Below, piece by piece: positions 31,543-33,253 of a stretch of 51,824 nucleotides of DNA. Position 1 is the first letter of the stretch. Every line of letters begins with the position of its first letter. Position numbers and translations under genes: made by a program. The notes under the pieces were generated by a model, which was not told the DNA's origin, did not search any database, and saw nothing but the letters and a program-made list of their open reading frames with translations. The stretch is from Patescibacteria group bacterium (GTDB taxonomy: Bacteria > Patescibacteriota > Minisyncoccia > Phycocordibacterales > JAACPR01). The DNA lies in the NCBI GenBank assembly GCA_022711495.1, contig JAKLEX010000001.1:502882-554705 (forward strand), written 5' to 3'.

Positions 31543-31757
31543 CTTACAATTTATCCACTATTTTGTCTCGTCCTATTTCTACCGAACTTTCTCGGCGGTC
31601 AGTAAGTCTTCCCTTACTTCCACTCATCTTTATTGAGAGCGATGAGTACTCTTTCCGTGCTCGATCGAGGCACAGAAATCGACACGATCAGGGAATTCGG
31701 CGCAACTTTTGCGTGTTACCACGCAGTCTTGCGACTGTGCGCTTTTTCCCGATTGTA

Positions 31758-33253
31758 TTTTTATATAATCCACGAACAGCTTCCGCTACCCGTGCCTTGT
31801 TACGACTTCGTCCCTGTCATTGAGTTCACCGTAATACCAAAAAATTTGATGCTTCGGGTGCTCCCAACTTCCTTGACGTGACGGGCGGTGAGTACAAGGC
31901 TTGAGAACGTATTCACCACAGTATGGCTGACCTGTGATTACTAGCGATTCCGGCTTCATGAGGTCGAGTTGCAGACCTCAATCCGAACTTGGGGCAGTTT
32001 TATAAAGGTTTGCTCCGTCTTACGACATTGCGCCTCGTTGTTCTACCCATTGTATCACGTGTGCAGCCCAGGGCGTCTAGGGTCATGCTGACCTGGCGTC
32101 ATCCCCACCTTCCTCCCTCGCTTCTATGTCCGACTTTAAAAAGTCCGACACAAAAGCGAGGGCAGTCTCGCGTGACACTTGTAACACACGATGGGGGTTG
32201 CGCTCGTTACCCCACTTAAGGGAACAGCTCAAACCACGAGCTGACGACGGCCATGCAACACCTGTCTATTTGTCTTTCGAGGGCTCCAGTTTCTTGGAGC
32301 TTTCAAATAGATTTCTAGCCCTGGTAAGGTTCTTCGTTTACCGACGAATTGAGCCACATGATCCACCGCTTGTGCAAGCCCCCGTCTATTCCTTTGAGTT
32401 TTAGCCTTGCGGCCGTAATACCCAGGCGGCTCTCTTAACGCGTTAGCTTCGCCTCGAACGGGGTCGATTCCGCTCAAAGCCAGAGAGCATCGTTTAGGGT
32501 GTGGACTACTGGGGTATCTAATCCCATTCGCTACCCACACTTTCGTGCCTCAGCGTCAGAAATGTCCCAGTAAGCTGCCTTCGCTTTTGGTGTTCCCCTA
32601 TATATCAACGGATTTCACCCCTACACATAGAGTTCCGCTTACCTCTGACATCCTCTAGACTTGCCGTTTCCCTTGCCCTTCCCGAGTTGTGCCCGGGGCT
32701 TTAACAAGAGACTAACAAATCCGCCTACGCACCCTTTACGCCCAATAATTCCGGATAACGCTCGAGGCACTCGTATTACCGCTGCTGCTGGCACGAGTTT
32801 AGCAACCTCTTATTCCTCAAGTAACGTCAATAAACTTCCTCCTTGAGAAAAGATTTTTACGTCCCGAAGGACTTCATCAATCACGCGGCGTCGCTCCGTC
32901 AGACTTGCGTCCATTGCGGAAGATTCTCGACTGCGGCCACCCGTAGGTGTATGGTCCGTTTCTCAGTACCATCGGTGGGGGTCACCCTCTCAGGTCCCCT
33001 AAGCGTCATAGCCTTGGTAAGCTTTTACCTCACCAACAAGCTGATACTACGCAGGATATTCCCAGAGCGATAAATCTTTACTCCGAAGAGACCATCAAGT
33101 ATTAGCCTATCTTTCGATAGGTTATTCCTGACTCTGGGGTACATTCCCACGCGTTACTACCTCGTCTGCCACTCCCCTTGCGGGGCGTTCGACTTGCATG
33201 CCCTATCCACGCCGCCAGCGTTCATCCTGAGCTAGGATCAAACTCTTAGCTTA
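31758..33253 (-). rRNA. rrs: 16S rRNA (about 1.5 kb, no intron, no anti-SD); ends approximate
   Basis: AGAGTTTGATCCTAGCTCAG near 5' end, GTGCCAGCAGCAGCGGTAA, ATTAGATACCC, AAGTCGTAACAAGG and h45 with GGAA loop. Confidence 0.98.

Follow-up and report, generated by a model that had tools for sequence, protein, structure and literature searches.

Few parts of bacterial rRNA are as highly conserved as the anti-Shine-Dalgarno sequence (anti-SD), and a large clade without it is a natural experiment in how start codons are found. The 16S rRNA gene studied here lies in a stretch of 51,824 nt (the window) from the genome of a tiny, uncultured Parcubacteria/Paceibacteria (CPR) bacterium, and a first-pass annotation of the sequence had proposed that its 3′ end lacks the anti-SD. 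This raises the question whether the loss is genuine and, if so, whether it preceded or followed a mode of translation initiation that does without Shine-Dalgarno (SD) pairing. We consider it very probable that the loss is genuine and inherited, that SD-independent initiation came first, and that the anti-SD decayed afterwards in a clade lacking ribosomal protein uL1. The coordinates of the relevant features are collected in Table 1.

Table 1. Features of the rRNA genes in the window and sites of SD-bearing cassettes elsewhere in the genome
Feature	Position	Strand	Evidence or remark
16S rRNA gene, only copy	31758..33253	-	Rfam RF00177, 1358.8 bits, full model 1-1533
16S 3′ tail, GAUUAUAUAAAAA instead of GAUCACCUCCUUA	31758..31770	-	Sequence and covariance alignment
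Helix 45, 10-bp stem CACGGGUAGC/GCUGUUCGUG with GGAA loop	31771..31794	-	Fully paired, covariance alignment
Helix 44, short tip	31806..31888	-	Tip (~31840-31846) 13 nt shorter than bacterial (Rfam) consensus
16S 3′ trailer with hairpins, leader-complementary stretch (31561-31582) and intrinsic terminator (~31505-31540)	31505..31757	-	
Stretch of 16S 5′ leader with complementarity to the trailer (putative processing stem)	33259..33296	-	RNA duplexfold of flanks
5S rRNA gene	42245..42140	-	Rfam RF00001
23S rRNA gene, with inserts	45970..42321	-	Rfam RF02541
Examples of cassette sites, G000:C1, outside the window	151986-153423, 223157-229302, 274919-288234		
Further examples of cassette sites, G000:C1, outside the window	310816-312545, 411786-413449, 494297-500830		

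A single 16S match was found in the whole genome (565 kb, 95.8% complete). It lies inside a 554-kb contig, and its flanks are normal, with a leader/trailer stem and a terminator. Read in order, the 3′ end of the gene consists of AAGUCGUAACAAGG, CACGGGUAGC, GGAA, GCUGUUCGUG and GAUUAUAUAAAAA. The covariance alignment places the tail on GAUcACCUCCUUu with CCUCC missing, and CCUCC was not found in the ~250-nt 3′ trailer up to the terminator either; the proposed absence of the anti-SD is confirmed. The 5′ leader adjoining the gene is predicted to pair with the trailer ~190 nt beyond the 3′ end, and the 3′ trailer inside this putative stem would be unusually long. The predicted stem is distal and does not fix the mature 3′ end, whose place is presumed. 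The trailer also carries a hairpin-rich insert of ~57 nt (31690-31750, minus strand) between the conserved motifs ACAAUCG and CUGAUCGUGUCGA; in two sister species a hairpin of ~18 nt takes its place.

Other peculiarities of this 3′ end had been reported together with the missing anti-SD. The stem of helix 45 (h45) was said to differ from the usual sequence and yet to be fully paired, and the covariance alignment bears this out: it holds zero non-canonical pairs, and among relatives there is covariation at one pair (G-U / G-C / C-G). With its GGAA loop, h45 is the substrate of KsgA, whose gene is present in the genome. The helix called 'remodelled' is not specific to this gene: in a survey of the class, described below, h45 is paired 10/10 in 105/108 genomes and the GGAA loop occurs in 105/108. 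Likewise, the nucleotide at E. coli position 1506 (31794 in the window) is indeed C, but the U said to be normally invariant there is given in lower case in the Rfam consensus, and C1506 is found in 102/108 genomes of the class, including 34 of the 40 that keep CCUCC. As both traits are class-wide and occur also where the anti-SD is kept, they are unrelated to its loss, and we rejected a link between them. The tip of helix 44 is shorter, as reported, by 13 nt against the Rfam consensus instead of the estimated ~10 nt (deletions of 7 and 6 nt in the cmscan alignment).

To measure SD usage, we took ORFs of 80 aa or more, discarded overlaps and set each start at the first ATG, which left ~560 genes on 90.6% of the genome; the starts follow a simple ORF rule and not a trained gene finder, and fractions are approximate. 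Upstream of the starts G is depleted, to 0.13-0.16 at -12..-6. The mean duplex energy with ACCUCCUUU was -1.33 kcal/mol at starts as compared to -2.22 at internal in-frame ATG controls. The same script applied to 50 kb of E. coli K-12 yielded -4.02 at starts and -2.07 at controls, with strong SD 5-mers in 21.8% of genes versus 0.8% of controls. The starts of the present genome pair worse than controls, unlike those of E. coli, and there is therefore no genome-wide SD enrichment; the better pairing upstream that SD-led initiation predicts was not observed, and native genes lack an SD signal. The pipeline was also applied to 13 genomes of the class with different tails, ~100 kb of each. Four genomes that keep CCUCC (G224, G116, G186 and G066) carry strong SD motifs in 0-5% of genes, about as many as controls, and pairing is weaker at their starts than at controls. 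Among four genomes of other Patescibacteria classes there was one SD user (20% vs 3%), and three use SD motifs weakly or not at all. Since relatives that retain CCUCC are equally poor in SD motifs, SD-independent initiation seems to predate the loss. The gene for EF-Tu (tuf; G000:C1:119600-119760) has a canonical promoter and a ~120-nt leader that ends AU-rich. A GGAGG stands 24 nt before its ATG and is missing in the sister species G001, so that this most expressed leadered gene is without a conserved SD.

There is one exception to this lack of SD signals: ~27 mobile genes of different base composition carry a strong SD. AAGGAG occurs at SD spacing 22 times where 2.1 are expected, and a strong SD-like 5-mer stands upstream of 34 genes; 27 cassette genes are left once seven core or native genes, whose matches look like chance, are set aside. 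The enrichment is thus confined to a subset of ~5% of genes and is not genome-wide. A typical cassette has a TTGACA-17-TATAAT promoter, a CA-rich leader of 40-60 nt and AAAGGAG 6-8 nt before the start; the cassettes are monocistronic, and each typically has its own hairpin terminator ending in TTTTTATTT. The 34 SD genes are GC-richer than the others (GC3 0.54 vs 0.43, Mann-Whitney p = 1e-10), and 14/34 have a homologue in G001 as compared to 80% of other genes. G001 has 43 SD genes of its own, also with deviating composition (GC3 0.43 vs 0.26, p = 2e-18). No Pfam family was found for 8 of the 10 cassette proteins tested, and one cassette protein searched against 120 genomes of the class matched only itself, so that no donor was identified by this search. 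An SD in a genome without an anti-SD is paradoxical, and a reading in which SD motifs are simply irrelevant does not predict these accessory genes; the cassettes are the part of this system that could yield something new. The simplest reading is that they are mobile and brought their SD with them from an SD-using gene pool. That the motif is instead under selection here, read by something other than the 16S tail or placed on mRNAs meant for a different ribosome, we regard as unlikely; if it were true, the conserved tail GAWUAWUUCAA would have a function of its own.

The cassettes also bear on a rival explanation, according to which the anti-SD function persists in an extended mature 16S rRNA, a trans-acting RNA or a protein reader, with the SD cassettes as clients. 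It would account for the uniformity of AAAGGAG at 6-8 nt in the ~27 cassette genes and in the 43 of G001, and for its presence in both members of 8/8 homologous pairs between the two genomes although the proteins share only 26-53% identity. However, the 250-nt trailer offers no CCUCC to an extended 16S rRNA, and there is no second 16S gene. We searched the whole genome for patterns from GATCACCTCCTT down to CCTCCT, followed by the conservation of CCTCC against G001, and no candidate for a hidden anti-SD emerged. Most of the non-coding hits proved to be SD motifs before small genes, read on the opposite strand; the conserved non-coding CCUCC occurrences fell into the rRNA genes, presumed tRNA genes and the region upstream of secA, and the CCUCC site of the tuf leader is missing from G001. 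Moreover, the cassettes are GC-richer and mostly not present in the sister species, and at least two of them lie directly behind an apparent tRNA 3′ end, so that the motif can be an imported relic. We therefore judge a surviving anti-SD function of this kind to be quite improbable.

If native genes do without SD pairing, what precedes them instead? TATAAT occurs 69 times in the region -20..-1 where 3.6 occurrences are expected. The distance from TAnAAT to the start codon is most often 6-9 nt (86 genes), and the TGn of an extended -10 element accompanies 54 of the 86 boxes (63%). With the looser pattern TAnnnT at 6-9 nt, 168/558 genes (30%) are positive versus 4-6% of random positions or internal ATGs. 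Conversely, an ATG follows 5-10 nt downstream of 76 of the 187 TGnTAnAAT sites in the genome (7.5% expected). The coincidence of anti-SD loss with a leaderless-promoter pattern, proposed from the window, is thus borne out by a strong signature across the genome. A -10 box at this distance from the ATG means that the mRNAs should start at the start codon itself or only a few nucleotides away from it; the geometry indicates leaderless mRNAs, with transcription presumably starting at the ATG. The four relatives that keep CCUCC display the -10 signal as well (17-32% vs 4-10%). In our literature searches, no paper turned up that connects 'leaderless' with CPR or Patescibacteria.

The same peak could be read in another way. 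The tail contains AUUAUA (positions 1531-1536), the exact complement of TATAAT, and a peak 6-9 nt before starts also fits SD spacing; the tail could thus be a new anti-SD and the box its ribosome-binding site, and the conservation of the tail above the level of the downstream spacer would agree with this. However, the boxes behave as promoters do. Besides the frequent TGn, they stand nearly always before ATG (13.4% of ATG candidates vs 0.8% of TTG and 1.2% of GTG), and they precede only 4/55 overlapping genes as compared to 34-48% of genes that are divergent or spaced by >20 nt. The same signal (12-39% vs 3-10%) is found in class genomes with quite different tails, including canonical CCUCC, and six A-U pairs would be very weak. 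We rejected TATAAT as a ribosome-binding site on account of this promoter geometry, and a new anti-SD of this type is very improbable.

In order to place the tail phylogenetically, we compared it with those of relatives. A 16S search in 40 relatives gave 19 distinct 3′ ends from different species-representative genomes of the same genus, family or order, all separate assemblies, and CCUCC is missing from 19/19. This excludes an assembly error, against which the first-pass annotation had argued from the paired h45. A chimeric or truncated 16S 3′ end in place of a true gene with CCUCC can be practically dismissed: although rRNA regions of MAGs are often misassembled and h45 plus tail had 0 exact matches in metagenome contigs (in a scan that may omit records near the window), the gene sits amid normal flanks in a long contig, two congeneric species share the tail GAUUAUAUAAAAA identically, and the finding agrees with a lineage-wide pattern described in PMC9297842. 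The consensus of the tail in the order is GAWUAWUUCAA. Its column entropy is 0.5 bit over 11 nt, as compared to 1.4-1.8 bit in the downstream spacer, and the 11-nt tail is therefore not evolving freely. In the relatives from the order (loci L006-L024), a short inverted partner (UUCAAAUUGAA, UUCAAGUGAA) often comes after UUCAA, which gives a conserved small palindrome at the 16S end. The loss of the anti-SD is inherited and common to the whole order.

Beyond the order we sampled 201 genomes of the class, of which 108 yielded a 3′ end by pattern search, and set these tails against the outcome of a uL1 search in the 201 genomes. The comparisons at class and phylum level use ~100 kb per genome, and the samples of relatives are partial. 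A canonical CCUCC tail was found in 40 genomes, with uL1 present in 17 and not found in 23; a partial CUCC tail (e.g. CAUCUCCUUU, UUUCUCCUUU) in 15, with uL1 present in 0 and not found in 15; and a tail without CUCC in 53, with uL1 present in 0 and not found in 53. In other words, 68/68 non-canonical tails belong to genomes without a uL1 match and 17/17 genomes with uL1 have the canonical tail; related genomes are not independent, and these figures are counts and not statistical tests. The tails form a series across the class that begins with canonical CACCUCCUUU, passes by way of CAUCUCCUUU and UUUCUCCUUU and ends with UUUCAAUUUU and UAUAUAAAAA; they change mainly by C-to-U and C-to-A substitutions. 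Even a single family varies (UUUCUCUUUU, UUUCAUUUUU, UUUCAAUUUU). Outside the class, ~75 Patescibacteria tails were nearly all canonical.

The present genome itself gave no match to the uL1 family (PF00687), which was detected in 14/14 control genomes; given 95.8% completeness, uL1 is likely to be truly absent. As to the other translation proteins named in the first-pass annotation, the gene for IF3 is present, as is an S1-like protein of 367 aa with four S1 domains that scores below the curated rpsA cut-offs; bS21 was not found in the genome. Era, an assembly GTPase, binds GAUCACCUCC of the 16S tail (PMC10582724). A match to Era above the curated cut-off was obtained in 1/201 genomes of the class and not in the present one. 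Era is absent in the class with or without a retained anti-SD, and we rejected its loss as the discriminating cause; its absence remains a permissive factor.

Taken together, the observations on the state of the tail, its phylogenetic spread, the missing SD signal, the placing of promoters relative to the ATG and the genes present or absent point to the following course of events. These bacteria initiate translation without relying on SD pairing. About a third of their genes, with a sigma-70-type -10 box (often with TGn) 6-9 nt before the ATG, would be transcribed into leaderless mRNAs; the ~30% of genes that overlap or closely follow the preceding gene may be served by coupling or re-initiation; and the remaining leadered genes, such as tuf, bear AU-rich leaders that lack an SD. 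SD-independent initiation, together with the class-wide absence of Era, would have been the first step, and the last step would have been the mutational decay of an anti-SD no longer needed, inside the clade that lacks uL1. We infer that this decay was neutral and proceeded under relaxed constraint.

The loss of the anti-SD in this organism is real, and it belongs to a lineage-wide loss already known since 2022; it is thus not new to this genome, having been published for uL1-lacking Parcubacteria. In the study of Tsurumaki et al. 2022 (RNA 28:1041, PMC9297842), only 48% of Parcubacteria carried a detectable CCTCCT motif, and, in the passages of that paper considered here, the link between the loss of the motif and uL1 is called unclear. 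The genome described here resembles the subgroup of these passages in belonging to the same lineage, in the missing CCUCCU, in the joint absence of uL1 and in shortened rRNA helices, and our class survey reproduces the association with uL1. Neither 'leaderless' nor 'h45' occurs in the same passages, and the graded series of decaying tails, the SD-poor relatives that keep the anti-SD, the leaderless geometry and the SD cassettes go beyond them. Three points are additions with respect to the papers found by our search: the loss seems to follow an SD-independent, leaderless-rich mode of initiation and not to cause it; Era, a binder of the tail, is absent class-wide; and intermediate tails persist in living lineages.

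Other systems share parts of this pattern. In animal mitochondria, mRNAs begin with the start codon or right beside it, and the mitochondrial and the present system, both reduced translation systems, combine leaderless mRNAs with a missing anti-SD. For mammalian mitochondria, the SSU rRNA has been described as lacking the anti-SD (PMC10582724). However, mitochondria are organelles with a dedicated mitoribosome and ~13 mRNAs, whereas the present case is a free genome of ~560 genes that has sigma-70 promoters and encodes a bacterial IF3 and an S1-like protein. Actinobacteria and Deinococcus-Thermus resemble the present genome in placing a -10 box ~7 nt before the ATG in many genes and in their preference for AUG; they keep the canonical anti-SD and use SD motifs on leadered genes, whereas the anti-SD is gone here. 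In Bacteroidota SD motifs are missing genome-wide, as they are upstream of the native genes in the present genome. There CCUCC is retained and sequestered by ribosomal proteins including bS21, while in the present genome CCUCC has disappeared from the rRNA and the search for bS21 gave no match, so that the organism does not qualify as a case of a sequestered anti-SD. In reduced endosymbionts and some Mollicutes, likewise with small, AT-biased genomes, loss or mutation of the anti-SD is rare and scattered over single lineages; in contrast, the loss here extends to about half of a large class, and intermediate states are visible. For the endosymbiont and Mollicutes cases, PMC9297842 cites Lim et al. 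2012 and Amin et al. 2018.

The altered 3′ end has practical consequences. In these genomes, gene prediction that presupposes an SD will put starts in the wrong place, and annotation rules that locate the 16S 3′ end by CCUCC will fail. As for the other rRNA genes, 23S and 5S are on the same strand as 16S but ~9 kb upstream, beyond a stretch of protein genes (ORFs), and the rRNA genes are therefore unlinked. The intervening genes include those for SecD/SecF, a glycosyltransferase and an FtsW-like protein. The 23S gene, at 3650 nt against a model of 2925 nt, carries inserts.
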